A stretch of 39,764 nucleotides of DNA from a virus. Every line of letters starts with the position of its first letter. Positions within the stretch are counted from its first letter, which is position 1. Below, piece by piece: positions 7,142-28,230 of this stretch. The stretch lies in IMG/VR virus record IMGVR_UViG_3300033564_000224. One strand, 5' to 3'. The notes under the pieces are model-generated. The model saw nothing but the letters and a program-made list of their open reading frames with translations, had not been told where the DNA came from and did no database searches. The translations under genes were made by a program, and so were the position numbers.

Positions 7142-7157
7142 AACCCACTGAAAGCCG

Positions 7158-8322: not shown

Positions 8323-8333
8323 CGAAATCTCCA

Positions 8334-8366
8334 AAGGATGAGGGATAACTTTCATCCCTCATCCTT
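8334..8366 (-). promoter_or_regulatory. perfect 13-bp stem-loop directly after the capsid gene
   Basis: Minus strand: AAGGATGAGGGAT GAAAGTT ATCCCTCATCCTT. There is no U-tract. It abuts the SD of the next gene. Confidence 0.6.
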
Positions 8367-8380
8367 CATCATTCATCCTT
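8354..8380 (-). repeat. GGATGAA-type heptamer repeat after the capsid stop codon
   Basis: Minus strand: AAGGATGAATGATGAAGGATGAGGGAT. Confidence 0.7.
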
Positions 8381-8384
8381 GCTT

Positions 8385-10961
8385 TTAGGCTTGGATCTTC
8401 ACGTAAGCGCCCTTGCCGCCAATCGGGGCGAGAGAGCCGTTGTATTCTTCAGAGTAGTACTGTTCACCGGCAATGATCTTGCCGTTGCTGTAAATCGGGT
8501 AAGGACCCTTGACGGTCATCGGCTGGAAGACGCGGTGCATTACCAATTCGCGGTTCATGACCAACGCCCAGCCTTCGCGCATCTGAGTGGATGCGAACAC
8601 CGGCAAACCCTTCACACTGCCTGCAAATCCGGCAGAGTTGAGCACTGCATTGGAAAATCCCTGAACCTTGAAACCATCCCAATTGCTGAGAAGGTCCGCA
8701 TTGGTCACGCTCATCAAAATGCCGGTCGGTTCGTAATAACGGTTGGCAACCAACACTTTAGCGCTGCCAAGTTTTTCGACAAAACTGGCAATCGTATCGG
8801 CTGAAATATCATAGGTGCCGCCGCTGTTGCTTGCCACACCCAATGCAGCCGCCAAACCTTTCTCGATCAAAGCCTTGTCAATGTTGAGGCGTGTCTGACG
8901 GATGATGTTCGCCATGGTGCGAGCTACGGCGTCCCAGCCGAGTTGTGAACGGCTAAAGACAATCGCTTCACTGGAGATGTAATCAGCCAGGCGTAAAGCG
9001 GTCGCTTCAAGTGTCTGATAGCTGAGTGTCACTTTGGCGCGTTCAATTTCGGCATTCTCGCCCTTGGCAATTGCGTTATAGCTGTAATCCACAAGCAGAT
9101 CATTGGCGTCAATTGCGCCAGCGGCTAAAGCCTTGATCTTGCCCAATTCGTAATCGATCACGAAGTCAGTGCCTTCCACGTAGGTGGTGCCTGCGGGGTT
9201 GCTGGTGACAACGACAGTGCCGGGAGTAACATACGCATGAGCCAGCGCGTACCAGGTGCTTTCTGCGCCCGCAGTAACCTCTTCATCGGTGATGGCTACG
9301 GTATAGCCAGTTTCGCCGGTGAACGCCTCAAAATAAATGCGCTCAGATTGTGAGTTCATCATGCCCACATCGAACAGATTGGCAGCCACCAAATTGGGGA
9401 ATGCCTCAGCGATGATCGCGCGGCTGACCGAATACGGCAGGTTCAAATCAGTGGTCAATTCGGCTTCGTTGAACAGGCGGGCTTCGTTGATCAGTTTGCC
9501 TTTGTTCTGTTCGTCAAAACGAGCCAGCAATTGAGCGGTGAAAACACCAGCGCGGCTTTCTGCGCGCAAGTTGAGTTCAGTCTTCGAGCGCATTTCATTC
9601 TTGCGCAGGGATTCGGTGATCTCAAACGAAGCGCGTGCGAATTCGGGCGTGCCGGTCTCACGTTCGAGAACATCACCCAAAACCACGATGCCTTTCTTTT
9701 CATCGAAACCCATACCAACCAAAGCGCCTTTCGCGGCGAGCTTGCCGTATTCAGCGCGTTTGCTCTCGGTGAATTTCTTCACGGCATCAACGTCTTTCAG
9801 TTCAGCCGCTTTGAGCGCATCCACAAACGACTCATTCAAATCCTTGCCGAAAGGCAGGTCTTTGGTCGCTTCGGTAATGGCAACTTCAACAGCCGCCTTG
9901 CGCTGAGATTCCACCAATTGAGCCTTGGCAGTTTCGCCTTCAGCGATCATCTTCTGGGCTTCCTGCAATTGCTTGGCAAGATCAGCCTTTTCGTTTTGTA
10001 CTTTTTCTAAAAGTTCGTCAGACATTTCATCATCTCCATGTGATTGATTGATTGATTCGATTAGCGCGGCTGAATTCTCAAAGGATGGCTCCAGCACCAG
10101 GTCAAATCCTGTAATATGCAGTTCGCTCACTTCAAAAATCTTATCGCCGCTTTCAGTAACATTCTTGCCGTCACCATAACCGCGCAGACTCACGCCTGGC
10201 ATCACGCCGCCTTCCATCAAAGTCAGGATGTCCTTGCCTTTGGATGTTTCCAGCACGCGACCGATCACGTCTACGCGCTGACCGTTGAAAGTGACATCTT
10301 CCCACTTCACAACCGTTTCCAAAAAGCTAGCACGCCCGCCCTTGTCAGACGGATGTTCCGTCTCACCAAGAACCTGCACCGCCATGCCTTGCCCGTTGCT
10401 CTCATGCAGATGACCGCGTAATTCAGCGACCGCCGCAGAGATAACATTTGCAGAATATCGGCGACGATTGCCATTGACAATCCCCGCCGTCATTGCTCCT
10501 TCAATAATGATGCGCTTTTTTCCAGATTCGCTTTCTTCCAAAGCCACACGCGCATTCAATCGCTCTTCAAATTTCTTGCCGCGTTTCTTGCCGCTAACCA
10601 AAGCGCGCTCCCCTAACTGGGAGGATGTCATCATGCTTGCCGAGAGGGGCGCGGCAGGTTGATAACTCAACTCGACCTTTTCCCATAGATCACGTGTCTG
10701 GAAAACATAATCAGGACCTTCCGCGCCTTCTGTTTTCGGCGCATAAGTCACTTTCCAATATTCATCAGTCTTCAACGCCGAAAGCGAACCATATTCAGAA
10801 ACGATCACATGATCGGCAAAGATTTCATTGACGTAATACTCATCCCCGTTTTCATAAGGGAATTGTTTTCTGAAAGCCTCACGGATTTCGCTCATGGTGT
10901 AATCCATCGAACCTTTCACCAACTCTTCCAACGCTGTACCTTTATCAATTTTGTTAGCCAT
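8385..10961 (-). CDS. fused prohead protease-like / coiled-coil scaffold / HK97-fold major capsid polyprotein (858 aa)
   Basis: Residues ~150-300 (IIIEGAMTAGIVNGNRRRYS...VLGETEHPSD...GVSLRGYG) resemble prohead proteases. Residues ~310-420 are E/K/A-rich and coiled-coil-like. The C-terminal ~400 aa look like a major capsid protein. No separate protease, scaffold or capsid gene is present. Confidence 0.65.
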   Translation of the reverse strand: MANKIDKGTALEELVKGSMDYTMSEIREAFRKQFPYENGDEYYVNEIFADHVIVSEYGSLSALKTDEYWKVTYAPKTEGAEGPDYVFQTRDLWEKVELSYQPAAPLSASMMTSSQLGERALVSGKKRGKKFEERLNARVALEESESGKKRIIIEGAMTAGIVNGNRRRYSANVISAAVAELRGHLHESNGQGMAVQVLGETEHPSDKGGRASFLETVVKWEDVTFNGQRVDVIGRVLETSKGKDILTLMEGGVMPGVSLRGYGDGKNVTESGDKIFEVSELHITGFDLVLEPSFENSAALIESINQSHGDDEMSDELLEKVQNEKADLAKQLQEAQKMIAEGETAKAQLVESQRKAAVEVAITEATKDLPFGKDLNESFVDALKAAELKDVDAVKKFTESKRAEYGKLAAKGALVGMGFDEKKGIVVLGDVLERETGTPEFARASFEITESLRKNEMRSKTELNLRAESRAGVFTAQLLARFDEQNKGKLINEARLFNEAELTTDLNLPYSVSRAIIAEAFPNLVAANLFDVGMMNSQSERIYFEAFTGETGYTVAITDEEVTAGAESTWYALAHAYVTPGTVVVTSNPAGTTYVEGTDFVIDYELGKIKALAAGAIDANDLLVDYSYNAIAKGENAEIERAKVTLSYQTLEATALRLADYISSEAIVFSRSQLGWDAVARTMANIIRQTRLNIDKALIEKGLAAALGVASNSGGTYDISADTIASFVEKLGSAKVLVANRYYEPTGILMSVTNADLLSNWDGFKVQGFSNAVLNSAGFAGSVKGLPVFASTQMREGWALVMNRELVMHRVFQPMTVKGPYPIYSNGKIIAGEQYYSEEYNGSLAPIGGKGAYVKIQA

Positions 10962-10997
10962 GTTTTCACCTCATAAACGTTATAAACTTTATAAACA

Positions 10998-12584
10998 TCA
11001 AATACTTGCAATCGCAAACAAACTTTCAGAACTCACCACAATTGCCGGACTGCTCACCGTCTTACCGCTTCCACTCGCGTTATCAGCGATCATCTGATTG
11101 CCGCCGCTGACCGTATCCACTTCATCGTCATGCCGTCCCTTCGGGAAAGCCGAAGCCGTCCGTAGGAAGGAAAGGTTCCACGTACCGCGCACCAATCGCA
11201 CACGTCCCTGCTTTGAGCGCAAACGCCAGGGTTGTGCCCACTGCGTCTTATCGCCATCGTGACTTCCGCGCGTCATACCCATAATCGGAATTCTCGCCAA
11301 TCGTTGGTCCTTCAAAAAGTCCCTCACAACCAACGTCTGGAAAGCATTATCTTCAATGCCCCAGATCGTACCGATCTCACGCTCCGAAAGCATCAACTCC
11401 ACGCACAACGGCAAAAACATATCCAGCTTCTGCTCCACCAGCATGTCACGGATATATTCGTAACCGTCTGCATCCATTGCCACCGCCGCGGTTGCGTTTG
11501 AATCTGCCTGTTGGCTATTACCCAAAGCCAGATCAACATAGCGATACCACTGCAAACCCGCTGGAGCTTTTTCAACGATTTCAAAATCATCCTCGTCAAA
11601 GAAATTGCCCGCTGATAATCTCGGCATTTGCTGAAACTGTGCGCCGAATTCAAAATCATTCATATTCACAGCCAGGGCGTGCAACTGTTCCGAATCATGT
11701 TTCTTTTCCCAAAGCGGTTCCCCCGGAGCGCGCCCCAGTTGATCGCCGTGCATTGGCACATATACACCGCGCAATAAATTTTCTGTAAATTCAGCTTGCG
11801 TCTTTGGGTATTGGTTTTCCTCCAACGCCACCGCAGGCATAAAAACAACATCCCATTGATCCGCCTCACCATCACTCGCCATTGCCTTCAACAGCTCGCC
11901 AGACAGATCCTCAACATCCCAGCGCGTCATAATCACAATGATTGCCGCATGGTCTTCGAGCCGTGTATAAGCCGTGGACTGATACCACTCATAATTATCT
12001 TTGCGGAGCGTGTCACTGCTCGCCTCTTTCCTACCCTTTACAGGGTCATCAATCAGGAACAGATTCGCCCCGAAGCCTGTGATACCGCCGCCCACACCCG
12101 CCGCCAGCATCCCACCGTTTCGGTCTGCAATTTCCCACGCCGCGCTCGCCTTGCTATCCGGGTCCAACAAAACCGGCTCATTCGACGAAGCCAACGCGCC
12201 GAAGACTTGCGAATACTCCTCAGACATAATTAGATCGCGCACCGCCTTGGAATGCTTCGATGCCAGGTCTGCGTTATACGAAGTCATAATGATGCGCAGG
12301 TCAGGATTTTTGCCGAGCAACCATGCTGGGAATTTGCGCGATGCCGTTTGAGATTTCCAATAGCGCGGAGGCATGAAAACCATCAAACGCGAAATCCCTT
12401 CCTTGCCGCCGCTCAAAATATATTTGGCAACCTGCTCGAGCTTGTACGCCAAAACCTGCACGTGTTTTGCATCTGTTGGATGCTTCTTATCCACGTGCCT
12501 GCAAAACGAAAGAAAATCCCGTTCAGCCATAATCCGGCTGCGGATTTCTTCACGAATTGCGGTTTTATTGGAGTCACTCGGCAT
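10998..12584 (-). CDS. terL: terminase large subunit
   Basis: Motifs MPPRYWKSQ (P-loop region), LFLIDDP (Walker B-like), and a C-terminal nuclease-like part. The ATG at 12584 lies inside the TerS 3' end; the tracked start at 12605 is TTG. Confidence 0.85.
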   Translation of the reverse strand: MPSDSNKTAIREEIRSRIMAERDFLSFCRHVDKKHPTDAKHVQVLAYKLEQVAKYILSGGKEGISRLMVFMPPRYWKSQTASRKFPAWLLGKNPDLRIIMTSYNADLASKHSKAVRDLIMSEEYSQVFGALASSNEPVLLDPDSKASAAWEIADRNGGMLAAGVGGGITGFGANLFLIDDPVKGRKEASSDTLRKDNYEWYQSTAYTRLEDHAAIIVIMTRWDVEDLSGELLKAMASDGEADQWDVVFMPAVALEENQYPKTQAEFTENLLRGVYVPMHGDQLGRAPGEPLWEKKHDSEQLHALAVNMNDFEFGAQFQQMPRLSAGNFFDEDDFEIVEKAPAGLQWYRYVDLALGNSQQADSNATAAVAMDADGYEYIRDMLVEQKLDMFLPLCVELMLSEREIGTIWGIEDNAFQTLVVRDFLKDQRLARIPIMGMTRGSHDGDKTQWAQPWRLRSKQGRVRLVRGTWNLSFLRTASAFPKGRHDDEVDTVSGGNQMIADNASGSGKTVSSPAIVVSSESLFAIASI

Positions 12585-14115: not shown

Positions 14116-14163
14116 TTGAAAAACGATAGCGCCCGATGCTGACCTAAGTCAACATCGGGCGCT
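14116..14163 (-). terminator. rho-independent terminator downstream of the cassette array
   Basis: Minus strand: AGCGCCCGATGTTGAC TTAG GTCAGCATCGGGCGCT, then ATCGTTTTTC. The single non-Watson-Crick pair is G.U on the minus strand only. Confidence 0.75.
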
Positions 14164-14295
14164 TATCTCCGAAATCACCTGCCACACTGGGCGGGTATTG
14201 CAAAAAGAACAACTGTACTAATTTCAATTATTTTAAAACATTTTCATAATTCTGCAAGAGTCAATTTATTCAAAATATGTTTTTTATTCTGAGCC

Positions 14296-14420
14296 GTCTA
14301 ACGGTTTGCGTTAGTGGTGATGGGTGAGAACCAAACCACCACGAACGGGATAATTTCAAAGTGTGGATGATGCCTGCAAACGGGGAGCATACCCATCATC
14401 CACTGCGCGCTTTGTTCGGC
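14296..14420 (-). repeat. attC-like site 10 (125 bp)
   Basis: Minus strand: R'' GCCGAAC...GTGG(A)TGATGGGT / ACCCATCACCAC stem...TAACGCAAACC, R' GTTAGAC. Confidence 0.75.
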
Positions 14421-14425
14421 GGCGT

Positions 14426-14872
14426 TTATCTTCCGATGCGTATAATTAGCATTAGGAAAATAGAAAATATAACCACGCACCCCACAATTGCGCCTGCGCC
14501 AATGTTTACCCACACCCATGCCGCCACCAATATTCCAACTGCCAGAAATAGCATTCCAGCGATTGAAGCAATAGTACCGCTCTTGTATTCTTCCGCCTCG
14601 CGGCGATGGTCGTAGGCTCTCAAATCTTTCGAGGCTTGTGTGCGCTCTCGGACGCTCTTATGGATTTCGGCATTGTCGCCTCTGCGATTCCGTATCCAAT
14701 TACGCCACGACTCATTATTTTCGCGTGCCGAAGCAATACCCTTGAGGGATCGCTTGATGTAGTTTCTTTGGTCAAACTGCTCCATACTATCCCAATTTGC
14801 GGGCTGTTCAATCGTGTGCATACAGCCGTTATCTTCATCCCACATTGTGACAGTTTCGGTTTTTTTACTCAT
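14426..14872 (-). CDS. cassette 10 ORF: C-terminally membrane-anchored protein (148 aa)
   Basis: ORF track. C-terminal hydrophobic stretch IASIAGMLFLAVGILVAAWVWVNIGAGAIVGCVVIFSIFLMLII. Its stop lies 5 nt before R''. Confidence 0.65.
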   Translation of the reverse strand: MSKKTETVTMWDEDNGCMHTIEQPANWDSMEQFDQRNYIKRSLKGIASARENNESWRNWIRNRRGDNAEIHKSVRERTQASKDLRAYDHRREAEEYKSGTIASIAGMLFLAVGILVAAWVWVNIGAGAIVGCVVIFSIFLMLIIRIGR

Positions 14873-14904
14873 AGTTTTCTCGCTTCTCGGCTGGCAAGGT
14901 AGCC

Positions 14905-15013
14905 GCCGAACGGACTGCGTTAGCCGCGTGTGCGACCAACCATAACCTTATTTTTTGGATGATACTTCTTTACGCCACAGCCTTGCACACGTCGGGTGAA
15001 CGCTTTGTTAGGT
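14905..15013 (-). repeat. attC-like site 9 (109 bp)
   Basis: R'' ACCTAAC...CCG(A)CGTGTGC / GCACACGCGG stem...CTAACGCAGTCC, R' GTTCGGC. Confidence 0.7.
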
Positions 15014-15183
15014 GCGCTCATAATTGTGGATGGTTCTATTTTTCCATCAGACGGGAAATCCACGTAGAGCGTACCATCATCATACGAGAAAACTTTAGCA
15101 CACGGAACGTGCCACAAATAGCCACGCGATTGTATTGTTTCCAGATTCTTATTTTCTTTACCACACGATAGACATTTTTCCAT
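14920..15183 (-). CDS. cassette 9 ORF: small Cys-containing (zinc-ribbon-like) protein whose 3' end reads through attC
   Basis: MEKCLSCGKEN...WHVPCAK. The stop is the conserved TAA of the attC 3' arm. Confidence 0.55.
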   Translation of the reverse strand: MEKCLSCGKENKNLETIQSRGYLWHVPCAKVFSYDDGTLYVDFPSDGKIEPSTIMSAPNKAFTRRVQGCGVKKYHPKNKVMVGRTRG

Positions 15184-15188
15184 GAAGC

Positions 15189-15301
15189 ACCTAATGATTT
15201 TCTTTACCCGCTCACGGCAGGCTCGGCATTTTCAACGAACACGACATCAGGCAGGCAATGAGCCGCCGTCTGGAGGGAGTCGGGTGCAAGCTGTGTTAAC
15301 C
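15189..15301 (-). repeat. attC-like site 8 (113 bp, degenerate R')
   Basis: R'' GGTTAAC ACA GCTT G CACCCG A C...GCGGGTAAAGAAAATC, R' ATTAGGT. Confidence 0.6.
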
Positions 15302-15491
15302 CGCTTTCTTGCTGGCTCACGCACTTTGCCAATAAAGCACCAAGACGGTAAACCTTGAAACTTCGATTTTCAACGCCGATCTTGTGACCAAGTACCAATT
15401 GTTTTGCGCTCATCGTTAGCATAATTTGTATGTTTGCTATATTATCTTTGTCGTCATAGAAAATCACTACGCTATAACTTTCTTTTGGCAT
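15204..15491 (-). CDS. cassette 8 ORF: hypothetical protein (95 aa, start re-assigned)
   Basis: ATG at 15491 after GGAAGGAGAG. The C-terminal ~35 aa are encoded by attC 8. Confidence 0.6.
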   Translation of the reverse strand: MPKESYSVVIFYDDKDNIANIQIMLTMSAKQLVLGHKIGVENRSFKVYRLGALLAKCVSQQESGLTQLAPDSLQTAAHCLPDVVFVENAEPAVSG

Positions 15492-15514
15492 ATTCTCTCC
15501 TTCCAAAAAGTGAG

Positions 15515-15606
15515 GGCTAACGGTTTGCTTTACTGGATTGGGGCGTTATAACCTCGGCAATAAAACGCCACGCCCGCCCCAAGTCCAGTGCAAGCGATTG
15601 TTAGAC
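15515..15606 (-). repeat. attC-like site 7 (92 bp)
   Basis: R'' GTCTAAC...R' GTTAGCC. It is 90/92 identical to site 6. Confidence 0.8.
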
Positions 15607-15951
15607 CCCGCCCCGTTCTGACGGGGCTTTGATTACACCGCCGTACTTTTCTATCAATTTCTGGCAGAACCCTTCGCTGATTTTTCCGCGCCAAATCTCT
15701 TGGGCGGGAACATCAATAACATATTTCTTTTTTCTCTCGACAGTTATCGCTCCGTTGCCTTCTATGCGTTCTCCGCGCAAATAGTAACTTCCATCATCTA
15801 CATTCGCTTCGTTTTCATAATGACCGACGGCTTGCGAGTGCTCGACAACTACGCCATCAGTGTAGATGGTTACTATATGGATTTCTTTCCCGTCGGAGTC
15901 AGGGAAAAAACGAAATGTTTCTCCAAACGTGAACTTCTCAACTTTTGCCAT
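15601..15951 (-). CDS. cassette 7 ORF: hypothetical protein (116 aa), paralog of the cassette 1 ORF
   Basis: 102/116 aa identical to 18613..18963. SD AAAGGAGAG. The stop TAA lies inside R'' (GTCTAAC). Confidence 0.75.
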   Translation of the reverse strand: MAKVEKFTFGETFRFFPDSDGKEIHIVTIYTDGVVVEHSQAVGHYENEANVDDGSYYLRGERIEGNGAITVERKKKYVIDVPAQEIWRGKISEGFCQKLIEKYGGVIKAPSERGGV

Positions 15952-15976
15952 TGCAACTCTCCTTTTACAAGATAAG

Positions 15977-16068
15977 GTCTAACGGTTTGCTTTACTGGCT
16001 TGGGGCGTTATAACCTCGGCAATAAAACGCCACGCCCGCCCCAAGTCCAGTGCAAGCGATTGTTAGAC
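15977..16068 (-). repeat. attC-like site 6 (92 bp)
   Basis: GTCTAAC AATC GCTT G CACTGG A CTTGGGGCG...CGCCCCAAG CCAGTA AAGC AAACC GTTAGAC. Confidence 0.8.
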
Positions 16069-16422
16069 CCCGCCCTGTTGAGCGGGAACGACTGCCAGTA
16101 GTGCGGCTCGACATATTGCAAGCGGTGCGGTTTCTGCGTTTGCTTCAAAACTCTCGAATGCATTGAAGATAACGCATACCCATCCGCGAATAGATGTACG
16201 TAAATCTACGTCATGCAATTCGTCAACAGACCCCATTTTTTCAACCACGTCCCACACACTTGTTATATTTTTTGAGTACGGATAAACACTTTCCCGACTT
16301 CCCAAAACATAAATAAACGGTGCGCCACGCTCCCAAACTATCTCACGCTTAAAAACATGCTCATCAATAAGCGCGTCCATTTTTCGCCCTGCGGGCATAT
16401 TCAAAATTTCATCTTTGGTCAT
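16063..16422 (-). CDS. cassette 6 ORF: hypothetical phage-type small protein (119 aa, start re-assigned)
   Basis: ATG at 16422 after GAAGGAGAAGG. MPAGRKMDALIDEHVF...YSKNITSVWDVVEKM...APLAICRAALLAV loosely recalls small phage accessory proteins. The tracked N-terminal extension is attC 5 sequence. Confidence 0.65.
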   Translation of the reverse strand: MTKDEILNMPAGRKMDALIDEHVFKREIVWERGAPFIYVLGSRESVYPYSKNITSVWDVVEKMGSVDELHDVDLRTSIRGWVCVIFNAFESFEANAETAPLAICRAALLAVVPAQQGGV

Positions 16423-16443
16423 AACCTTCTCCTTCACGAAGGG

Positions 16444-16554
16444 GTCTAACGGTTTGCGTAACCCGCAGGAGCGAGAACGCAAGACCACAAAATTATTTAC
16501 CAGAACGCTTTTTCGGCGTGACGTTGCTCCTGTCGGGTTCACGCTGTGTTAGGC
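16444..16554 (-). repeat. attC-like site 5 (111 bp)
   Basis: R'' GCCTAAC ACA GCGT G AACCCG A CAGGAGC...GCTCCTG CGGGTT ACGC AAACC, R' GTTAGAC. Confidence 0.8.
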
Positions 16555-16556
16555 AA

Positions 16557-17435
16557 CTAGCCATTAGACTCGCCTTCAACTGGCGAAGTAATTACATAAT
16601 CTTTCATCACAATGCCTTTTTCAATACTTCCGCGCACTTGGCTATTCCACCAATACATATCTTTATATTTTCCGAAAAGACCTTCTCCTTTTGAAAAATC
16701 CTTGAAATGTCCACGACAGATATGCAGTGATTGTTTCAATCCTAAACTTTCGGATTTTCCTTCCTCACGCAAAACTTTTTTCATCGGTTCAATTTCGAGA
16801 ACCTTATACTTAATTTTTGATGAATTCCTATTGCGTTTTTCATTTTTTTTATCATCTGATTTACGCGGAATAATTTCTACATTTTTACAATGTAGAAATG
16901 AAATTGCTAAAAGTGCTGGGTAAACATTCACAAATAATTCATCATATATTTTATGAACTCTTTCCGTTGCATTTATTTCTTCTGGAATAATTGCCATGTA
17001 TTGAACTTCTTCGCCATATTTAGCAATCCTTCCGTCTTTTTCGATTGCAAGCCCATACATAAAATAATCATTATTTACGCGCTCTGAATTTCCTAAAAAC
17101 AATGACATTAATAATCCCCACTTCGCCCCGCTCTCTGTAATGTCAACTGAACTAAATAAAACTCCAACACGAGTTCCGCTTGAATCGCGTTTATGATTTT
17201 CTCCATCGAAATGAAGCACTCCAGACGGCATTGAATATTCCATCCACATATTTTCAAATGGAGGCGCAAGGTTTGGAAAATCTTTTTCAAAATCCCATTC
17301 ATCTTGTTCACTTTTCCAAAAGTATTCAGCGACATTATCAATTAATATGATTTCCGAATTATCAATTTTAGAAATCATATCTTTAGTCAGAATACTGTTT
17401 TTGTTCTTAAGAATATTTCTATAAAGCGTATTCAT
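16557..17435 (-). CDS. cassette 5 ORF: hypothetical protein (292 aa), visibly AT-rich
   Basis: ORF track with SD AAAGGA. K/N/E/I-rich composition unlike the rest of the genome. C-terminal motif HICRGHFKDF...GLFGKY...WWNSQVRG was not recognised. Confidence 0.7.
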   Translation of the reverse strand: MNTLYRNILKNKNSILTKDMISKIDNSEIILIDNVAEYFWKSEQDEWDFEKDFPNLAPPFENMWMEYSMPSGVLHFDGENHKRDSSGTRVGVLFSSVDITESGAKWGLLMSLFLGNSERVNNDYFMYGLAIEKDGRIAKYGEEVQYMAIIPEEINATERVHKIYDELFVNVYPALLAISFLHCKNVEIIPRKSDDKKNEKRNRNSSKIKYKVLEIEPMKKVLREEGKSESLGLKQSLHICRGHFKDFSKGEGLFGKYKDMYWWNSQVRGSIEKGIVMKDYVITSPVEGESNG

Positions 17436-17453
17436 AATTTATCCTTTTGGGTT

Positions 17454-17541
17454 GCCTAACTTTTGCGTTACCCGCGCCGCGCCTGTAACCTGTCCAAAAA
17501 TGGCGGACGTGGCGCGGCGTCGGGTGCACGCCTTGTTAGAC
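17454..17541 (-). repeat. attC-like site 4 (88 bp)
   Basis: R'' GTCTAAC AAG GCGT G CACCCG A CGCCGCGCC...GGCGCGGCG CGGGTA ACGC AAAA, R' GTTAGGC. Confidence 0.8.
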
Positions 17542-17712
17542 CGCGCTCTCAATCACAAAGGTGTTGAAGTACGCAACAACCTTTTCCATCTCGGTAATTG
17601 CTACGGCATAACGCCGTGCTTCTTCGGTGCGCTCGGCTGGCTTTGCTTCACGCAACTTCATCAGCGCGAGTTTCAGAGATAGCATAACTTCTTCGTTTAC
17701 TGTTGTTTCCAT
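17536..17712 (-). CDS. cassette 4 ORF: 58-aa helical protein (below the ORF-track cutoff)
   Basis: Own translation: METTVNEEVMLSLKLALMKLREAKPAERTEEARRYAVAITEMEKVVAYFNTFVIESAV. SD AAGGA 7 nt upstream. The stop TAA lies inside R''. Confidence 0.55.
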   Translation of the reverse strand: METTVNEEVMLSLKLALMKLREAKPAERTEEARRYAVAITEMEKVVAYFNTFVIESAV

Positions 17713-17750
17713 TTTATTTTCCTTTACCGACTTCCTTTTGCAAGGGAGCG

Positions 17751-17841
17751 GCCTAACGGCTTGCGTTACTGGCTTGCGCCACTAACTTGATTGCTTTCAG
17801 GCGCGACGGCTGGCGCAAGTCCAGTGCACGCGGTGTTGGAA
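17751..17841 (-). repeat. attC-like site 3 (91 bp)
   Basis: R'' TTCCAAC ACC GCGT G CACTGG A CTTGCGCCA...TGGCGCAAG CCAGTA ACGC AAGCC, R' GTTAGGC. Confidence 0.8.
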
Positions 17842-18191
17842 GGCGTAGATGGATTTATGTATTCAAATTCGATACGTGTGACTTCAGCGGATGACGGCAC
17901 ACCCATTTCACGCATGAACATATCAATAAACCATTCCACGCTTTGACCTTCAAAACCTTCACGAATAACATCATCAGGAGTGATGTCGTAAAGCCTTTCA
18001 CGGCGGACATTTACCACGCGGATTTTTGCAAGGCGTTCAATCTTTTCACCTTGCTTCAAACCCATGCACTTTACACAGGCATTGAGTTCATCGCCTTTCT
18101 TCAACATCAGCCAACCCAAACGGCGAGTGACTGTCTTTTGTTGCTTTCGTACCTGCTCAGTTGTGAGCATGAATGAGATATTTCTAGCCAT
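17766..18191 (-). CDS. cassette 3 ORF: ASCH-domain-like protein (141 aa) with an attC-encoded tail
   Basis: ISFMLTTEQVRKQQKTVTRRLGW..LKKGDEL matches the ASCH N-terminal pattern. The last ~28 aa are translated from attC 3. Confidence 0.6.
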   Translation of the reverse strand: MARNISFMLTTEQVRKQQKTVTRRLGWLMLKKGDELNACVKCMGLKQGEKIERLAKIRVVNVRRERLYDITPDDVIREGFEGQSVEWFIDMFMREMGVPSSAEVTRIEFEYINPSTPSNTACTGLAPAVAPESNQVSGASQ

Positions 18192-18211
18192 AAGACACCT
18201 TTGCTTTAGCC

Positions 18212-18339
18212 TTCCAACGGTTTGCTTTACCAGCGCTGGGTGGGCGCGGATTCGGCTTGGGATGTGGATAATGCTGAGGCTTGTAAACTGCTTGTAGAAA
18301 CCGCCGAATCCCCAGCGTCGGGTGCAAGCTGTGTTGGGC
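18212..18339 (-). repeat. attC-like site 2 (128 bp)
   Basis: R'' GCCCAAC ACA GCTT G CACCCG A CGCTGGG...CCCAGCG CTGGTA AAGC AAACC, R' GTTGGAA. Confidence 0.75.
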
Positions 18340-18493
18340 GTTGTTTATCTTTACGAGCGGCTTCTATTGCCTTCAAGCGCGTCGCTGTTTCTGCAATGCA
18401 ATGACCTACGCCTGCACTAGACCACTCGTAAACATGATACATGCCATCAGCCCATTGAAAAATACGATAACCATTTGGAGCGCGTTTTGTCAT
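18227..18493 (-). CDS. cassette 2 ORF: hypothetical protein (88 aa, start re-assigned) with an attC-encoded tail
   Basis: ATG at 18493 after AAGGA. The C-terminal ~37 aa (RPTQLAPDAGDSAVS...) are encoded by attC 2. Confidence 0.6.
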   Translation of the reverse strand: MTKRAPNGYRIFQWADGMYHVYEWSSAGVGHCIAETATRLKAIEAARKDKQRPTQLAPDAGDSAVSTSSLQASALSTSQAESAPTQRW

Positions 18494-18526
18494 TTTCAAT
18501 TCCTTTATTGTGTTGAGCAAGGAAAC

Positions 18527-18618
18527 GCCCAACGGTTTGCGTTAGTTGCGTGGGGCGGCGTTACCTTCGCTTTCAGTACGCCAGCCCGCCCCACGTCAAC
18601 TGCACGCGATTGTTAGAC
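18527..18618 (-). repeat. attC-like site 1 (92 bp)
   Basis: R'' GTCTAAC AATC GCGT G CAGTTG A CGTGGGGCGG...CCGCCCCACG CAACTA ACGC AAACC, R' GTTGGGC. Confidence 0.8.
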
Positions 18619-18963
18619 CCCGCCCCGTTCTGACGGGGCTTTGATTACGCGGCCATACTTTGCTATAAGTTTTTGGCAGAAACTTTCACTGATTTGTCCG
18701 CGCCAAATTTCTTTGGGCGGGACATCCACAATGTATTTCTTTTTCCTTTCGACAGTTGTTCTTCCGTTACCTTCTATGCGTTCTCCGCGCAAATAGTAAC
18801 TTCCATCATCTACATTCACTTCGTTTTCATAATGACCGACGGCTTGCGTGTGTTCGACAACTACGCCATCAGTGTAGATGGTTACCACATGAATTTCTTT
18901 CCCGTTTGAGTCAGGGAAAAAACGGAACGTTTCCCCAAATGTGAACTTTTCAACTTTTGCCAT
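18613..18963 (-). CDS. cassette 1 ORF: hypothetical protein (116 aa), paralog of the cassette 7 ORF
   Basis: ORF track. Its leader TTAGACCTTATCTTGTAAAAGGAGAGTTGCA is identical to cassette 7. Confidence 0.75.
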   Translation of the reverse strand: MAKVEKFTFGETFRFFPDSNGKEIHVVTIYTDGVVVEHTQAVGHYENEVNVDDGSYYLRGERIEGNGRTTVERKKKYIVDVPPKEIWRGQISESFCQKLIAKYGRVIKAPSERGGV

Positions 18964-18988
18964 TGCAACTCTCCTTTTACAAGATAAG

Positions 18989-18995
18989 GTCTAAC
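18989..18995 (-). other. first core recombination site (GTTAGAC) at the head of the array, in an attI-like position
   Basis: Minus strand: TGA G TTAGAC. The core site directly follows the stop of the intI remnant. Identity with the cassette 7 copy starts exactly at this G. Confidence 0.65.
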
Positions 18996-19181
18996 TCATG
19001 ATTCTACTAGCGCACGCCGTATAACAGGTGACGCCAATTGACGATCCAACGGTGAACGAACTGCCGCGCCCCCAAGTAAATGTACATAGATCATTGTTGT
19101 CTCAAGTTTCTGATGTCCGAGCAACTCCTGAATAGTCCGAATATCCGTTCCCGATTGATATAAATGCGTCGCGTACTTCAT
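18996..19181 (-). pseudogene. intI: 5'-truncated integron integrase (intI-like tyrosine recombinase) remnant, C-terminal ~60 codons only
   Basis: [45 protein letters not shown] matches box II of tyrosine recombinases (LLGH...Y) plus the IntI-typical VRSPLD ending. An in-frame TGA lies 2 codons upstream of the first Met. Confidence 0.75.
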
Positions 19182-19215
19182 CCATCAACTTAGCCATAGC
19201 ATCACCCTATACAAC

Positions 19216-19360
19216 GCAAATTCCTGCCAAAGAACCGAAATCTCCGGGAGCTACCAACTCAACGGCGACACGCATTTCTCTGGCAGGAATTTGCCTGTGA
19301 ATATGAAATTGTAATAGAACGATCTTCACAAAATAAAACGCATCGCCCGTGGAAAAGAGT
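19216..19360. repeat. two interleaved perfect inverted repeats (14 bp and 13 bp)
   Basis: gcaaattcctgcca (19216-19229) pairs with tggcaggaatttgc (19281-19294). gagctaccaactc (19248-19260) pairs with gagttggtagctc (19347-19359). The order is A-B-A'-B'. Confidence 0.8.
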
Positions 19361-19375
19361 TGGTAGCTCGGTTTC

Positions 19376-19404
19376 ATTTTACAAGCTACGATTCTCAATG
19401 TCAA
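19376..19404 (-). promoter_or_regulatory. near-consensus sigma70 promoter pointing into the intI remnant and cassette array
   Basis: Minus strand: TTGACA (19404-19399), a 17-nt spacer, then TAAAAT (19381-19376). Confidence 0.6.
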
Positions 19405-19418
19405 TAGGAATACAAACG

Positions 19419-19952
19419 CTATCTGCGCCACGTAGCCGCGCGAAGCTCGGGAGCAACATACTTCAGCCCGCACAGTTGAAAAAAATCTTCCTCCTCCAAA
19501 ATATGCACTGGGCTATTATCTCGGCTGCTCCAAACCGCGCCGTCTTTTACATACACCGTATCAGGCAGCGCCCCGCCAATCGCCCGATGCGAAACCATCC
19601 ACTGGCTGAAATCCGCAGGACCCGTGCGGATCATATATTGCACCCCCCAATCCGCTGGGGGAGTCACAATAAACAAATCCAAACTGATCCCGCTATACAA
19701 AGCAATTTTTTTATATTTATGCCCGTTCTTTTCAACCTTGCCCAAGTTGGAAAAATCAAACACATCCAAAGAATGGTCTTCCAGCACCGCACCAAACATA
19801 TCCGTTTGCATAAAAGGCACTGCCACGATCTCAATATCTTTCACCTCCGGCTTCCCTCGCCGAATAGAACCCGCGATCTCAATCCGCTTGCAAACGTCCC
19901 CCAATGTAGAAACCAATTGATTAGCCAACTGCAAAGCCTCAGTGTGTTCCAC
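19419..19952 (-). CDS. minimal Pol-beta/PolX-like nucleotidyltransferase (177 aa)
   Basis: IAGSIRRGKPEVKDIEIVAV fits the GS-x-RRGK...D-x-D/E palm motif of family X polymerases. A later ISLDLF supplies a third acidic residue. Confidence 0.6.
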   Translation of the reverse strand: MEHTEALQLANQLVSTLGDVCKRIEIAGSIRRGKPEVKDIEIVAVPFMQTDMFGAVLEDHSLDVFDFSNLGKVEKNGHKYKKIALYSGISLDLFIVTPPADWGVQYMIRTGPADFSQWMVSHRAIGGALPDTVYVKDGAVWSSRDNSPVHILEEEDFFQLCGLKYVAPELRAATWRR

Positions 19953-21258: not shown

Positions 21259-22239
21259 CTATTTCAAAGAGAAACCGATCTTATACAAACCGTTTGCAAT
21301 TGCCATAACAGGATCATCCGCCATAATGGACTTTCCATTGAACTTGGCTCGTAAATATTTTTCAAGCAATATTGATCCGCCGCCAACTAAAAACACACGA
21401 TGGAAACGGTGATAACTCTGACCCCAAAGCGAGTTCACAAAACCAACCACCTCACTCGCCCAACTCTCCAAATGCGGAGTTACATCCAATTCATCGGGCA
21501 GCGTTCCAGCGCGCAGCATTTCGTCAAACTCGCCGAACGTGTAATAACCGTTTGGGTCTACCCGCCGCCATAGTTGACGCACTCCAATCGACTTGCCGCC
21601 GTTGAATCGCTTTGTATCTTCATCGCGTTTTGTTACCAACGCCTCAACCGTATTGGAGCCAATTGAAATTGTTGCGCATTCATTTTTCAGCGCCTTTATT
21701 CGCTCTTCGCTGATTGCCTTGCCAAAAATATCCAACGCATAATCAACTGGCGCGCCTAAAGCCTGCGGATAAAGTTCCACTCGCTCTACCTCAAGCGTAT
21801 AGCGTTCACCGTCTGCCATCCACTCATGCGAGCCAGCCAGCCAGCCATTCACGCCCTTGCGAAACTTTGCCACGTTTGCGCCTTCGCCCATCAACATCTG
21901 GAAAGGCAAACCAACGATCAGAGTCAACGCATCATCAAACGCGCCATATTTACGCATATAAGATGTCATCGCTCCGTAAAACACGCCGCGCATTTCAGGC
22001 GTTCCAGCCAGGCGGTCAAAGTCCAAATTCTCAATAGGCGTCCCGTAGGAATGCGCGCCATGCCCCACGAACAATTTCCCGAAATCACCTTCCACAACCA
22101 CAGGCTTCTTGCGTTTCTTGCCAAAATCAGCCACATCAGAACCGTACAACGCCGCCATACTTGCAAACTGCAAAGCCCCGCGCACACCTACAAATTTCAA
22201 AGAACTTTGTCCCAAATCACAACCAAATTTGATAGTCAT
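21259..22239 (-). CDS. parM: actin-like segregation ATPase (ParM/StbA family)
   Basis: 326 aa with actin-fold motifs: FGCDLGQSSLK (phosphate 1), IVGLP, ISIGSNTVE (phosphate 2), VFLVGGGS (adenosine), AIANGLY. Confidence 0.7.
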   Translation of the reverse strand: MTIKFGCDLGQSSLKFVGVRGALQFASMAALYGSDVADFGKKRKKPVVVEGDFGKLFVGHGAHSYGTPIENLDFDRLAGTPEMRGVFYGAMTSYMRKYGAFDDALTLIVGLPFQMLMGEGANVAKFRKGVNGWLAGSHEWMADGERYTLEVERVELYPQALGAPVDYALDIFGKAISEERIKALKNECATISIGSNTVEALVTKRDEDTKRFNGGKSIGVRQLWRRVDPNGYYTFGEFDEMLRAGTLPDELDVTPHLESWASEVVGFVNSLWGQSYHRFHRVFLVGGGSILLEKYLRAKFNGKSIMADDPVMAIANGLYKIGFSLK

Positions 22240-24418: not shown

Positions 24419-24735
24419 ATTTATGAAGGTTTATGAAGAACGCCTAAAAAGCAAGTTCATAAAAACAACCATTACAAAACTAGACTTACAAAAATTTTGC
24501 ATAAATACCCCTTCTTCATAAACATTCATAATGTTCATAAAATAGGTGTATGTATGTGTAGGTTTAGTAAAAAACTTACCGCCCATAATTCGCATAGTTG
24601 AATTTATGAACATTATGAAGGAAAATGAACATGAAAACGCACTTTGAGCACAGTAAAAGAAAAAAAATACATGTTTTTTTTCTGGAAGTGCCCAGTACCC
24701 CCTAAAATGCTTCATGATGTTCATGATGTTCATAA
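24419..24735. repeat. AT-rich iteron cluster (TTATGAA/TTCATAA), candidate replication origin
   Basis: Perfect heptamers start at 24421, 24431, 24456, 24515, 24525, 24534, 24604 and 24613. TTCATGA/TTCATAA tandems lie at 24707-24734. The cluster lies immediately 3' of the primase-helicase gene. Confidence 0.55.
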
Positions 24736-27700
24736 ACGGGTTTCCCATTCGCCGCTATCCTCATTGAAATACATTGCGTCATCACTCGGTTTTATAAAAT
24801 CCTCTTGCACCGGCACAGGCATTTTTACCGGCTCCACTACAGCCAGAGCTTCATCCAGTTCAGATTTCGGGTTATATTCCGCTTCACGGTCAAGCCCCAG
24901 CCTCAATTTCGCCACCTCTAAACGTTCACGATGCAGAATCACAGCCCACCCATCCCCTGTTCTCTCAACTGGCAGGCGGAATGAATCGCGACAAACATCT
25001 CCAATTGTTTTACTTTTCACCCCTTGTTTTTTCTTATCGTCTGCGCCATCCGCAAAATTTTCAACGTCAAAGATTTCATTGGCTATTGCAGCTACGTCTT
25101 TATACAGGATATAGCGCACAGTCCCATGTCTTCCCACCTTCCCCACCTTCACCTTATCCCCATAACCCTTCACTTTTTCGGCATAGGTCTTGCTTGCCTG
25201 TGGCTCAAATCCGAGTTTCACGTCTCCGGCAATATCAGCCGCCAAAGTAGCCCGCAAAATTACCGCCTCAAACGAACCTGCACGCTTGATCATTTCATCT
25301 TCATAGTTTGCGCGTCCGATTTTCATCAGGTCATCCAACAGTTGTTGATCGTTCTGCAAAACTGCCAGTACCTTCATCGGGCGCAGCACCTGGTTCACTC
25401 GCGGCGAAACCAGTGGGTCTGCAAGATGGAATGCCTGCCGCTGTTCTGGTGATAGTTCGATCTTCGGCATCCACATTTGAAGCCGCCAGCGCAGGCACAT
25501 ATTCCGAATACTGTCCGCGTCCTCTTCCAGTTCTGGCGGGTAATAGCCTGGTTCCATTCCTGCTCGGTCAAGTGTCAAGGTGTCCACTTGCGAAAGATCA
25601 AACGTAATACAGCGGTTTTCAATGCCAGGGTCAGCAAACGATTTGTACATGGTGATAAAAGTTACGCCATAAACATTGGAGGTCGATGGAACAAATACTT
25701 TCCCGGTGGGTGTCATCATCTCCATCATGTTCAACGAATTTGCATAGCGTTTCATTGAACGCCCCTTCAAAAACGCCTCCATTGTGCCGTCGTCTTTTTT
25801 CATCAGGTTGTCCGCTTCATCAATCATGACTGAGGCGTTATACAATTTTGCCAGCCCCTTATACGAGGCGGATGATGATGTTGAAAGCGTCACCGCAAAC
25901 CGGTAGCTGGTTAGTCCAACTAAATACATCAAATCCGACTTACCCGATCCACTGCCACCGCGCGCCCGCAGAAAATTCAGCGCCTCGAACGAATCAAAAA
26001 CCCAACTAAACAGCGAATACGCCCCGCAGAATTTATAGCGGCTCTTTTCTTCCAAATAAAAATACTTCTCATAATATTCAGCGTTCCGGTTGATCAACTC
26101 GCGCGAGTTCTTCAGCGGACCTAACGCGCTGGGGAGTTTCACTACGCACACCTCAATCAATTCGTCATATTCCGGTGGCTCAAGTTTCTTGCCACCCACT
26201 ACCAAAAACGGCGCAGTATCAATTTCGCGCTCCCCGTTTTTCATGTCCGTAATATGAGCATAGGCAAAACGTATTTTCTTATTTACCTTGTCATAGATCA
26301 GATCAATCAAATAACCGCTGTTCTCGGCTTTATCTTCTGGATACCACCCGCCATAAGTGGTGACAACTTCGAGTTCATCATCGTCGTCATCTTCATTTTT
26401 CGCCGCCTTCATCTCTCCACCCAGCCAACGGCTATAAGCCAGCGTTCTTTCAGCCTTTCCCAAACTTGGATAAAAAGCCTCAGCAAGCGCAGCCGTATAG
26501 TTGACGCGGCTTCCATTGGGCATTGCCAAAACCAGCGGACGCACAACCTGATTCAGCGCCTGTTCCTTGAACTTCCCTTCCTGCGCACCCGCATACCGCG
26601 CCGCCAACAGGACAATCGGCTCGGCTTTTGCGATAATATCCTTCACAAAAGGTTTGCGCTTATCATCCTCAATTTTGTTATCCATGAAATATTGAGCAAT
26701 GTCATTTGTATCTTTCAGCCGCTTCGTATGTCCATCTGGACGCACCCACTCAATCGCAGGCGTGCGTTCCACCCACAGCATCGAACCGAAAGCAGTAGAT
26801 AGAGGAAAATCATTCTTGCTGCCGCACACAACGGTTTCGCCGGGAACATCCGCATCAACTGTATAAGCAATTTCTTCGTACTCTTCTTTCAATCGGTCAA
26901 TAATTCCGCTCTCGATCAGGTATTGCCATGACGAGCCGCACATAGCCATTGCCGCATCGCCAAACTGCCCCCACGTCACCGCATCGCCCTGCCCCTCAAC
27001 GATGTGGATCAGATCGCCCTTCGCCTGTCCCACAACATGATGCGCCCGATGCCGCCAGTTGAAATATGGTCTGCGAGGTCCCGCCAGTGTGGAATTCGGA
27101 TTGTGAGATTTGCGCTCCGCATCGAAACCCGGCAGTAGTCTCGCCGAAATATATTCAATCTTCCCGTCAAGTTTATGCGCGTACACTAACCCCGGTTTGC
27201 TCATCATCCCTTGCACGTAGTTATCAGCTAATCCCTTCGGGTCAATCTGGTGCTCAAGCGCCCACTTCTCAACATCGCCCTGGAACCCCAATATCATCAC
27301 AGCGTCAGGAGACAGCAGGTCAATCCCGTGCATCGTGAATTCGCCGCGCATTTCCTTGTACGCCTCAGCAGTAGCACGCCCAGAAAAACCTATGCCCGCC
27401 AGCTTGATAGTTTCCAACGTCCAACCGCGGTCAAGCGCATACGCCAACGCATCCTTATCAGGCGCACGGGTAACTGTTCCATCTTTCTCAGCCGTGCCCA
27501 ATAGCCAACGCTTGAACACACCCTGCGCCACACGCAACGCAGATTCGTGCGCACGCGCCGAAATTCTCTGCCCCAAATTTTCCTTATCACCCTGCAAAGC
27601 AATTCCCGCCTTGCCAGCCAATTCTTTTATTGCCTCTTTCAGATCATAGCCAGGGTTTTTCTTGATCACCCAATCGAATATATCTCCGCCATCATTGCAT

Positions 27701-27882
27701 GTTCCAAAGCATTTCCACGTGCCAGTCCCAGCGAACACCACCAAACTGGGCGTATGCGTATTGGTATGAAATGGACAAAACCCAGTGTAGTTAGCTCCGC
27801 TTTTGCGCAGCTTCACTGTTCCCGTTTCTGCCACCAAATCCTCGATAGCGATTTTCTCTTTGATCTCATCAATGACTGTCAT
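24730..27882 (-). CDS. primase-helicase fusion: CHC2 zinc finger, TOPRIM and P-loop NTPase (1050 aa, start re-assigned)
   Basis: CPFHTNTHTPSLVV...WKCFGTCNDGGDIFDW (DnaG-type zinc finger), IVEGQGDAVTW (TOPRIM), GGSGSGKSD (Walker A), VMIDEADN (Walker B). ATG at 27882 after GGAGAG. Confidence 0.8.
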   Translation of the reverse strand: MTVIDEIKEKIAIEDLVAETGTVKLRKSGANYTGFCPFHTNTHTPSLVVFAGTGTWKCFGTCNDGGDIFDWVIKKNPGYDLKEAIKELAGKAGIALQGDKENLGQRISARAHESALRVAQGVFKRWLLGTAEKDGTVTRAPDKDALAYALDRGWTLETIKLAGIGFSGRATAEAYKEMRGEFTMHGIDLLSPDAVMILGFQGDVEKWALEHQIDPKGLADNYVQGMMSKPGLVYAHKLDGKIEYISARLLPGFDAERKSHNPNSTLAGPRRPYFNWRHRAHHVVGQAKGDLIHIVEGQGDAVTWGQFGDAAMAMCGSSWQYLIESGIIDRLKEEYEEIAYTVDADVPGETVVCGSKNDFPLSTAFGSMLWVERTPAIEWVRPDGHTKRLKDTNDIAQYFMDNKIEDDKRKPFVKDIIAKAEPIVLLAARYAGAQEGKFKEQALNQVVRPLVLAMPNGSRVNYTAALAEAFYPSLGKAERTLAYSRWLGGEMKAAKNEDDDDDELEVVTTYGGWYPEDKAENSGYLIDLIYDKVNKKIRFAYAHITDMKNGEREIDTAPFLVVGGKKLEPPEYDELIEVCVVKLPSALGPLKNSRELINRNAEYYEKYFYLEEKSRYKFCGAYSLFSWVFDSFEALNFLRARGGSGSGKSDLMYLVGLTSYRFAVTLSTSSSASYKGLAKLYNASVMIDEADNLMKKDDGTMEAFLKGRSMKRYANSLNMMEMMTPTGKVFVPSTSNVYGVTFITMYKSFADPGIENRCITFDLSQVDTLTLDRAGMEPGYYPPELEEDADSIRNMCLRWRLQMWMPKIELSPEQRQAFHLADPLVSPRVNQVLRPMKVLAVLQNDQQLLDDLMKIGRANYEDEMIKRAGSFEAVILRATLAADIAGDVKLGFEPQASKTYAEKVKGYGDKVKVGKVGRHGTVRYILYKDVAAIANEIFDVENFADGADDKKKQGVKSKTIGDVCRDSFRLPVERTGDGWAVILHRERLEVAKLRLGLDREAEYNPKSELDEALAVVEPVKMPVPVQEDFIKPSDDAMYFNEDSGEWETRL

Positions 27883-28230
27883 AAAACTCTCCAGCGTTTT
27901 TCCAGAATTTTTATAAATATTCGAGCTTGCCCGCCCCAAGCCTCTCCGCACAAACAAAACAATTCGCCGAGCACCCCCACCCCCCTCCCTTACCACCTTA
28001 TGCGACAGATAATCATCGCCTTACAGACCAATCTAACCGCTATGTATGCCCGCTATCAGGCTGTTTATGTCGCATAATGCGTGTTCTACGACACATCCAA
28101 TCGTTTCTGGGAGTGCGCCCGCCCGTGCCAGCCCACGCATAATATGGAAGTGAACTTTGGGACTTTTTCTTCTACTGCTTATATTGTTGAGCGCGCGCGG
28201 GCGAACACACCTGAGAAACATTGCGACCTG

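Follow-up and report, generated by a model that had tools for sequence, protein, structure and literature searches.

The virus genome IMGVR_UViG_3300033564_000224 from IMG/VR was analyzed over its full length of 39,764 nt and is referred to here as the window (where coordinates run from high to low, they follow the minus strand). It carries a 61-residue "integrase" open reading frame (ORF) beside an array of integron gene cassettes. This ORF is a pseudogene fragment of an integron integrase (gene, intI; protein, IntI) and is ordinary in mechanism. We are confident that it marks a co-oriented integron, resident in a phage lineage, whose intI suffered an internal deletion of about 784 bp and whose cassettes now form a cluster of attC sites lacking an integron integrase (CALIN). 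The identity of both halves of the gene, the deletion between them, the structure of the attC sites, the shared orientation of gene and array, the intact homologues at the same locus, and the lack of any other IntI in the genome were all observed directly.

The ORF occupies 18996..19181 on the minus strand. In comparisons with NCBIfam models, its translation scored highest on the integron integrase model TIGR02249 (59.8 bits), with XerC (45.3 bits) and XerD (43.2 bits) below it, and the fragment is thus not a member of either Xer family. The match extends over positions 268–314 of the 315 in the model, taking in the IntI-type tail (VRSPLD), and lies far below the curated TIGR02249 cutoff of 265 bits because just 58 codons are left. 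Among Pfam models, Phage_integrase was matched (40.4 bits). Full-length relatives reach 368–379 bits on TIGR02249 and align end-to-end with VchIntIA (PDB 2A3V), so the assignment to IntI rather than Xer made in a preliminary description of this DNA is borne out. That description was also right in placing an in-frame TGA two codons ahead of the first Met (TGA-TGG-ATG, 19187..19179) and in having the stop codon (TGA, 18998..18996) touch the first GTTAGAC (G/TTAGAC, 18995..18989, the slash marking the crossover point). The recognizable 3' end of the gene, as delimited by blastn, tblastn, and TIGR02249, spans 18996..19172 and consists of the last ~58 codons (ATHL...LLGH...MIYVH...VRSPLD...LVES) plus the TGA.

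The fragment had been described as all that survives of the integrase, with no integrase sequence remaining upstream. The IntI-like 3' end is indeed there; the rest of the claim fails, since a ribosome-binding site, the native start, and the first 8 to 12 codons survive in another reading frame. Aligned by blastn with the intact intI of a related IMG/VR contig, L004, the window matched in two blocks: 19206..19175, which corresponds to 8 nt before the start and the first 23 nt of the gene (L004 9291–9321, 90.6% identity), and 19172..18988, which corresponds to the last 177 nt, the stop, and the attI/junction. The 5' end of the deleted gene (19175..19206, minus strand) accordingly comprises 8–9 nt upstream with a Shine–Dalgarno-like AGGGTGA, the ATG at 19197..19195, and about eight codons (MAKLMDEV). 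When three intact IntI proteins were used as tblastn queries, residues 1–12 (at 19197..19162) and 268–326 were found in the window, and none between. The overlapping ORF at 19102..19197 begins with the N terminus shared by L004 IntI and by P0003 and P0035, two short relatives from the search with the fragment in which an IntI N terminus is fused directly to a C terminus (P0003, MAKLMDEFQSRLRLKQYSLKTERTYMHWIRCYVRH followed at once by VGPHTLRH...; P0035, MSKLMDEVKNALRVQGY...GVRE before the joint). Decayed remnants had been considered for 19182–19420; three-frame translation of this spacer and tblastn with the three intact proteins gave no integrase remnant past residues 1–12. In relatives, a DUF5131 gene precedes intI; a search for traces of that gene at the window locus likewise gave none. 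With about 784 bp absent from the middle of the gene and both ends kept out of frame, the lesion is an internal frameshifting deletion, not a 5' truncation, nor is it a full-length gene with a mere frameshift.

The junction lies at 19163..19174 (minus strand), where 12 nt, ACGCGACGCATT, can be read either as N-terminal codons 9–12 or as the C-terminal residues F-A-T-H-L. That these nucleotides fit either half suggests a deletion between short repeats, and microhomology (the short repeat CGCNACGCATT) may have mediated it. The ATG of the 61-residue ORF belongs to the N-terminal piece, where it appears when ...G ATG GAT GAA GT... is read out of frame. According to the frame analysis, initiation at the native ATG would today give a 31-residue out-of-frame product (19102..19197, minus strand). 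Residues ~13–267 are absent from the window copy, which therefore lacks the full R-K-H-R-H-Y set and the IntI-specific domain, through which IntI proteins recognize the extrahelical bases of attC. Box II had been listed as kept, which holds for the last His, the catalytic Tyr, and the IntI-type C terminus and was overstated for the Arg of the HxxR motif, which is gone; the last His and Tyr are the only catalytic residues left. With the box I Arg, the Lys, the HxxR motif, and the IntI-specific domain all deleted, the remnant is catalytically dead.

Ten attC sites on the minus strand (within 14293..18621) follow the remnant: 18524–18621, 18209–18342, 17748–17844, 17451–17544, 16441–16557, 15974–16071, 15512–15609, 15186–15304, 14902–15016, and 14293–14423. 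A covariance model (R1) built from a manual alignment of these ten window sites returned exactly the ten when run on the window, on the minus strand only, at 72–95 bits. The consensus hairpin has 26 pairs, with 87.5% of the cells paired as compared with 30–35% when the partners were slid, and compensatory changes occur at 13 of the 19 pairs of the L helix. DNA folds show the R'' and R' boxes and two extrahelical bases (G and T) on the window plus strand, which is the integron bottom strand. All ten sites thus have the canonical architecture (R''-L''...L'-R', GTTRRRY, extrahelical bases, location after a cassette ORF). The motif GTCTAAC/GTTAGAC occurs eight times in the window, where 1.9 copies are expected, and every copy lies within 14296–18995. 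Each of the ten cassettes has its own ribosome-binding site, ORF, and terminal attC, and the array amounts to 4.7 kb, or 12% of the genome. Ten attC sites over 4.3 kb on one strand, with an intact IntI nowhere in the 39.7-kb genome, make this a CALIN; the ~784-bp deletion and the frameshift set it apart from a complete integron with a functional adjacent intI.

The remnant, the cassette ORFs, and the attC sites all lie on the minus strand, as had been described, and the inverted-integrase layout proposed on that basis recurs in every intact relative examined (L003, L004, L005, L036, L037, and Virus Rctr41k), in which intI is followed by attC sites on the same strand and its stop abuts the GTT crossover (in Rctr41k, at a distance of one base). 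The IMG/VR contigs L003, L004, and L005 share the gene order primase, ParM, ..., intI, cassettes, ..., a 228-residue protein, and the large terminase (TerL); the 228-residue protein is a homologue of Rctr41k_28, and a membrane protein after the array is common to L003 and L004. Their IntI proteins (326–327 residues; 368–379 bits on TIGR02249) stand at the same locus as the window remnant, and that of L004 aligns with VchIntIA at 229.7 bits, continuously over chain residues ~190–225, the IntI-specific insertion. The TIGR02249 scores of the other intact proteins are 395 (L036), 383 (L037), and 383 bits (Rctr41k). Just downstream of intI and co-oriented with it, model R1 detected two attC sites in L003, one in L004, four in L005, five each in L036 and L037, and six in Rctr41k, and it detected none elsewhere in these phages. 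Checking related phages for an intact gene, as had been proposed, hence gave a positive answer in several collinear contigs.

The wider set of relatives shows comparable surroundings. L036 (NCBI, 55 kb) and L037 (ENA, 75 kb) both have DUF5131, intI, five attC sites, and a second recombinase, and L037 has a terminase gene farther downstream. Upstream of intI, L080 encodes ParB and a DnaA_N protein, L082 a Xer-like recombinase, a primase, and ParM, and L081 a second tyrosine recombinase and a serine recombinase. In GenBank Virus Rctr41k (L041, KX853513.1), the region 4680–10104 holds a 332-residue protein annotated as "xerD integrase-like protein," which is an integron integrase, and then six co-oriented attC sites. 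This IntI and that of L004 have just 38% identity, so the shared syntenic spot houses two IntI lineages. Full-length relatives at 59% identity or more form over 100 clusters in metagenomes, about 12 of them on contigs of 27–75 kb. The contigs of L081 (34 kb) and L082 (42 kb) end no more than ~30 nt past the intI stop, which fits assembly breaks at the repeated attC sites, and short-read assemblies therefore probably under-report these integrons.

An exact 43-bp direct terminal repeat (1–43 and 39722–39764) marks the window as a complete phage genome of ~39.7 kb that is either circular or terminally redundant. It encodes a full structural module (large terminase, portal, head-morphogenesis proteins, and a protease–capsid fusion), a ParM-like protein, and a primase, and the array sits between the replication/partition and packaging genes. 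The window is collinear over its full length with Rctr41k (structural proteins 31–72% identical, most 45–72%; TerL 67%). Its one other tyrosine recombinase (28231–29184, 317 residues) is Xer-like and not an IntI, scoring 54.9 bits on TIGR02249 versus 134–142 bits on XerC/XerA. With no other IntI in the genome, the array could be rearranged only by an IntI supplied in trans, which agrees with the earlier view of a frozen array. The Xer-like recombinase, the ParM/ALP protein (21259–22239), and the primase (24730–27996) are conserved in L001, L082, and Rctr41k, which suggests a plasmid-like prophage lifestyle over chromosomal integration. The window has no tRNA genes.

At least six different intI deletion alleles were found among the relatives, and other relatives have arrays without a remnant. 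With coordinates referring to the L004 gene, L038 keeps nt 1–152 and 892–984 and L039 keeps ~nt 1–101 and 787–984, both joined in frame. L066 has ~10 N-terminal and ~78 C-terminal codons; differing by a single residue in the tail, it is the allele nearest to that of the window, and its surroundings are those of a phage. In L001/L002, nt 651–984 are fused to the N terminus of the DUF5131 gene, and in L040, nt 641–984 are fused to the N terminus of a homologue of the window gene at 19419–19952. A metagenome scan for the 3'-end signature yielded 34 contigs, including 11 with intact genes and at least 15 with remnants of 15–130 codons, most being followed by co-oriented attC arrays; a signature search of IMG/VR gave no contig beyond the three already known. 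Because all remnants were found with 3'-end probes, retention of the 3' end is in part an ascertainment effect.

We therefore also examined loci ascertained by the phage backbone, namely 48 IMG/VR loci chosen by TerL similarity and searched up to 10 kb upstream of TerL. Repeated tblastn searches (E ≤ 1e-4) gave no IntI match within 10 kb upstream of TerL at any of the 48 loci, and attC matches were present at eight. In L104 and L087, the array starts at GTTGGGC or GTTAGAC with a possible remnant of no more than ~13 nt. The lineage shows every stage: the intact integron, the deleted integrase, the bare array, and no integron. Two further contigs, L046 (~10390–11381) and L062 (1–1013), each carry two tandem short intI 3'-end remnants (...LVES*-GTT) about 0.9 kb apart, which may represent a cassette between two attI-like ends arising from attI × attI or attI × attC recombination.

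Alignment of the junctions delimits a putative attI at 18989..19025 (minus strand), consisting of a GTTATAC box (19025..19019), the conserved ...GTAGAATCATGA, and the R box G/TTAGAC (18995..18989). The GTTATAC box sits 30 nt upstream of the crossover, a spacing that we take to resemble that of DR1 in attI1. The junction ...GTAGAATCATGAG/TT is conserved in the window, L001/L002, L003–L005, L036–L040, and the metagenome matches; similarity ends after GTTNNNN, and the first cassette differs in each relative. Rctr41k has TAA-A-GTTATGC instead, with the crossover one base off the stop. Conservation up to the junction followed by divergence is the signature of attI × attC insertion and implies an attI within the 3' coding end of intI, a function that we infer from the alignments. 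Amino-acid identity is lowest over the last ~30 codons of the gene, yet in 84 of 103 pairs the synonymous-codon identity of this stretch exceeds that of the remaining codons, as compared with 55–58 of 105 pairs for three control regions; the pairs, drawn from 15 intact genes and compared within pairs with the codons fixed by the search pattern left out, are not independent. This excess is suggestive of an attI. A per-column scan of synonymous sites was dropped, as it was confounded by relatedness and by the pattern-fixed codons, and was replaced by the within-pair comparison.

These data raise the possibility that the 3' end has been kept by selection as an attI, with IntI boxes in the last ~30 codons, for capture through an IntI acting in trans. 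The conservation up to G/TT in all relatives while the first cassette varies, the synonymous-codon excess, and the GTTATAC box would all be expected, and many metagenomic remnants are only 18–30 codons long, with the tandem remnants of L046 and L062 as further cases. The biased ascertainment of the remnants speaks against it, as do the L104 and L087 arrays, which argue against a strict length floor; furthermore, the synonymous-codon pairs are not independent, and the attI itself is putative. An earlier version of this idea, in which selection keeps at least ~20 codons, was downgraded in view of the backbone-ascertained arrays with at most 13 nt of remnant. We regard selective retention as a tentative explanation, somewhat less probable than not.

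We give about even odds to a scenario in which tailed phages of ~35–45 kb with ParM, a primase, and a Xer-like recombinase, which are probably plasmid-like prophages, keep the integron as a module of their own at a fixed position, with attI in the last intI codons, cassettes turning over, the platform being exchanged, and intI being deleted repeatedly. Exchange is suggested by the L003 and L005 pair, whose IntI proteins are 87% identical and whose TerL proteins are 32% identical; across L003–L005, IntI identity is 78–87%, and TerL and ParM identity is 32–47%, except for the TerL of L003 versus L004 (68%).

Alternatively, the array and stub could derive from an integron of a host chromosome, part of which this phage acquired through illegitimate recombination or imprecise excision, as reported for Vibrio anguillarum prophages. 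Such captures are the main documented route of integrons into phages (PMC9892861), and the patchy presence of the integron among TerL relatives and the lateral movement of the module implied by the L003/L005 identities would fit. So would the metagenome contig L077 (1389–13788), which has a 47-codon intI remnant, then a 12-kb stretch with at least 11 attC sites in the same orientation, and no recognizable phage genes; the IntI clade of the window may accordingly also occur outside the phage backbone. However, the same position is occupied in several divergent collinear phages with intact intI, and the genome of the window is closed by a terminal repeat, lacks flanking host DNA, and has its array in the interior between the partition/replication and packaging modules. 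Moreover, a scan of 185,579 species-representative genomes by exact 8-residue patterns revealed no close IntI relative, the only matches being remote Acidimicrobiia recombinases at 25–30% identity. Host capture hence appears improbable.

Still less probable is that the deletion is an assembly artifact or a minority variant of a phage whose intI is intact. The assembly is of the metagenome type, and attC repeats do break related assemblies, as in L081 and L082; yet the similarity at the junction (at most ~11 nt) is too short to collapse a modern assembly graph, and deletions with other end points occur in independent samples. That the 61-residue ORF is a functional mini-protein, for example a C-terminal modulator of a trans-acting integrase, can practically be dismissed: the ORF does start with ATG and similar short ORFs are called in other contigs, but its ATG stems from the out-of-frame N-terminal piece and has no Shine–Dalgarno sequence, remnants in relatives vary in length and frame, and the retained native start yields an unrelated 31-residue peptide.

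Under the preferred reading of a deleted intI in a phage-resident integron, the ancestral module would have consisted of a promoter, intI, attI at the intI stop, and the cassettes, all co-oriented. A deletion of ~784 bp, perhaps via CGCNACGCATT, took out codons ~9 to ~268 and joined the native start and first 8–12 codons out of frame to the last ~58, which makes an active recombinase impossible. The G/TT crossover, the sequence adjacent to it upstream, and the ten attC-bounded cassettes have stayed intact. The cassettes would presumably still be transcribed along with phage genes, either from an upstream promoter-like site or by read-through, and their excision, reordering, or gain would need a compatible IntI in trans, from a co-infecting related phage or a host integron.

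Several regulatory features can be proposed around this module. The best sigma-70-like match in the region, TTGACA-17-TAAAAT (19376..19404, minus strand; 11 of 12 positions), is located in a 220-bp spacer that precedes the deleted intI; it could serve as the promoter of intI and, via read-through, of the cassettes. Between this site and the intI start, an inverted repeat (19216..19294, minus strand; 95% complementary, z = −2.5) could fold into a hairpin with a 19-bp stem and could act as a leader or operator. The spacer (19198–19418, minus strand) is absent in the relatives, where the DUF5131 gene overlaps the intI start. It also contains an interleaved perfect 13-nt inverted repeat, GAGCTACCAACTC and GAGTTGGTAGCTC, and might act as a regulatory leader able to adopt alternative structures. 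At the other end, a strong hairpin resembling an intrinsic terminator (14128..14163, minus strand; 16 bp plus a T run), 133 nt past the last attC, would close the integron transcription unit. No Rfam family matched in the whole window, the intI locus, or the spacer.

Some points weigh against the account given above. The promoter is a consensus match, and such matches in this region are not above the shuffled expectation. That an IntI acting in trans is available is speculative. In most TerL-defined relatives, the 10 kb upstream of TerL contain no integron, and given this patchy distribution, the term "resident module" holds for part of the lineage only. Finally, the deletion junction is that of a metagenome-type assembly, and the sampled population could also hold an intact allele.

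The cassettes (span 14296..18994, minus strand) are numbered from the integrase end. Cassettes 1–5 contain ORFs at 18613–18963 (116 residues), 18227–18493 (88), 17766–18191 (141), 17536–17712 (58), and 16557–17435 (292, phrog_20769); cassettes 6–10 contain ORFs at 16063–16422 (119, Phage_ABA_S), 15601–15951 (116), 15204–15491 (95), 14920–15183 (87), and 14426–14872 (148, membrane-like). Searches of the cassettes against Pfam and PHROGs gave only Phage_ABA_S, phrog_20769, phrog_8017, and some weak matches besides. The Phage_ABA_S (ABA-sandwich) protein is a cassette in three phage integrons, at 36–38% identity (window 16063–16422, L004 10296–10697, and L005 9930–10301), and the gene for the 292-residue protein of phrog_20769, a family of unknown function, has ~41% GC. 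Cassettes 1 and 7 (18527–18995 and 15515–15983) are paralogous: they share 86% identity across all 469 nt and do not differ in their 5' leaders; 19 synonymous and 14 nonsynonymous codon differences were counted among 117 codons. One copy adjoins attI, as duplication followed by re-insertion at attI would give, and the pair may thus be a trace of former integrase activity.

The element is of a known type, being a phage-borne CALIN of inverted layout that is accompanied by an intI pseudogene. A neighboring intI pseudogene was reported for 15 of 279 bacterial CALINs by Cury et al. 2016 (PMC4889954), who proposed that CALINs may originate by loss of intI from complete integrons, their cassettes still being mobilizable in trans. 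The window resembles these cases in having two or more attC sites, no functional IntI, and an adjoining intI remnant; unlike them, it is a complete phage genome, its deletion is internal and leaves both gene ends, and intact alleles exist at the locus in sister phages. In inverted integrons of the Treponema denticola type (PMC3607928), intI, attI, and the cassettes share one strand, and an R box, GTTRRRY, lies just past intI. The phage group of the window likewise has intI transcribed toward attI and the cassettes, a likeness of layout; the Treponema type is found on bacterial chromosomes, whereas the platform described here is on tailed phages and its crossover directly abuts the stop (TGA-G/TT).

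Qi et al. 2023 (PMC9892861) surveyed 10,705 genomes and counted 17 CALINs, one In0, and three complete integrons. Each complete integron and the In0 was either a fragment of a host chromosome, part of a class 1 mosaic carried by phage P1, or located in an inactive prophage; the CALINs depicted in that survey contained two to three attC sites (PMC9892861). The present case is similar in that intI, attC sites, cassettes, and CALINs occur within phage genomes, and differs in having 10 cassettes, one syntenic locus across a diverged phage group, and two IntI lineages (38% identity). The main text of that study makes no mention of Rctr41k, whose integron is complete. Compared with VchIntIA/IntI4 (PDB 2A3V) and class 1 IntI1, the intact relatives can be aligned from end to end, IntI-specific domain included, with L004 IntI being 42% identical to IntI1 of phage P1 and of a Salmonella record. 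They differ in being only ~40% identical overall and in the orientation of the gene relative to the cassettes, which is opposite, and the window copy lacks ~80% of the protein. Our literature searches retrieved no account of a resident integron at a syntenic position in a phage lineage; residence of this kind appears not to have been described, and any novelty would lie there.

Integrons are seen as platforms by which bacteria capture genes, and the few reports of integrons in phages have mostly been read as accidental captures. The window provides an unusually clear phage-resident integron, marked by a pseudogene fragment and accompanied by a decay series. It is a clean, closed example in which decayed and intact integrases occupy one locus in sister phages, with the public Rctr41k integrase labeled xerD. 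In terms of annotation, the lesson is that a 61-residue "integrase" ORF of this kind should be labeled a pseudogene fragment. The candidate attI overlapping the intI coding end is suited to standard attI × attC assays, and the phage-carried cassettes of unknown function are candidate phage–host conflict genes. The relatives together form a natural series for how integrase-less cassette arrays arise. If the integron is indeed a module resident in this lineage, phages would be more than accidental carriers: they would use integrons and give rise to integrase-less arrays.

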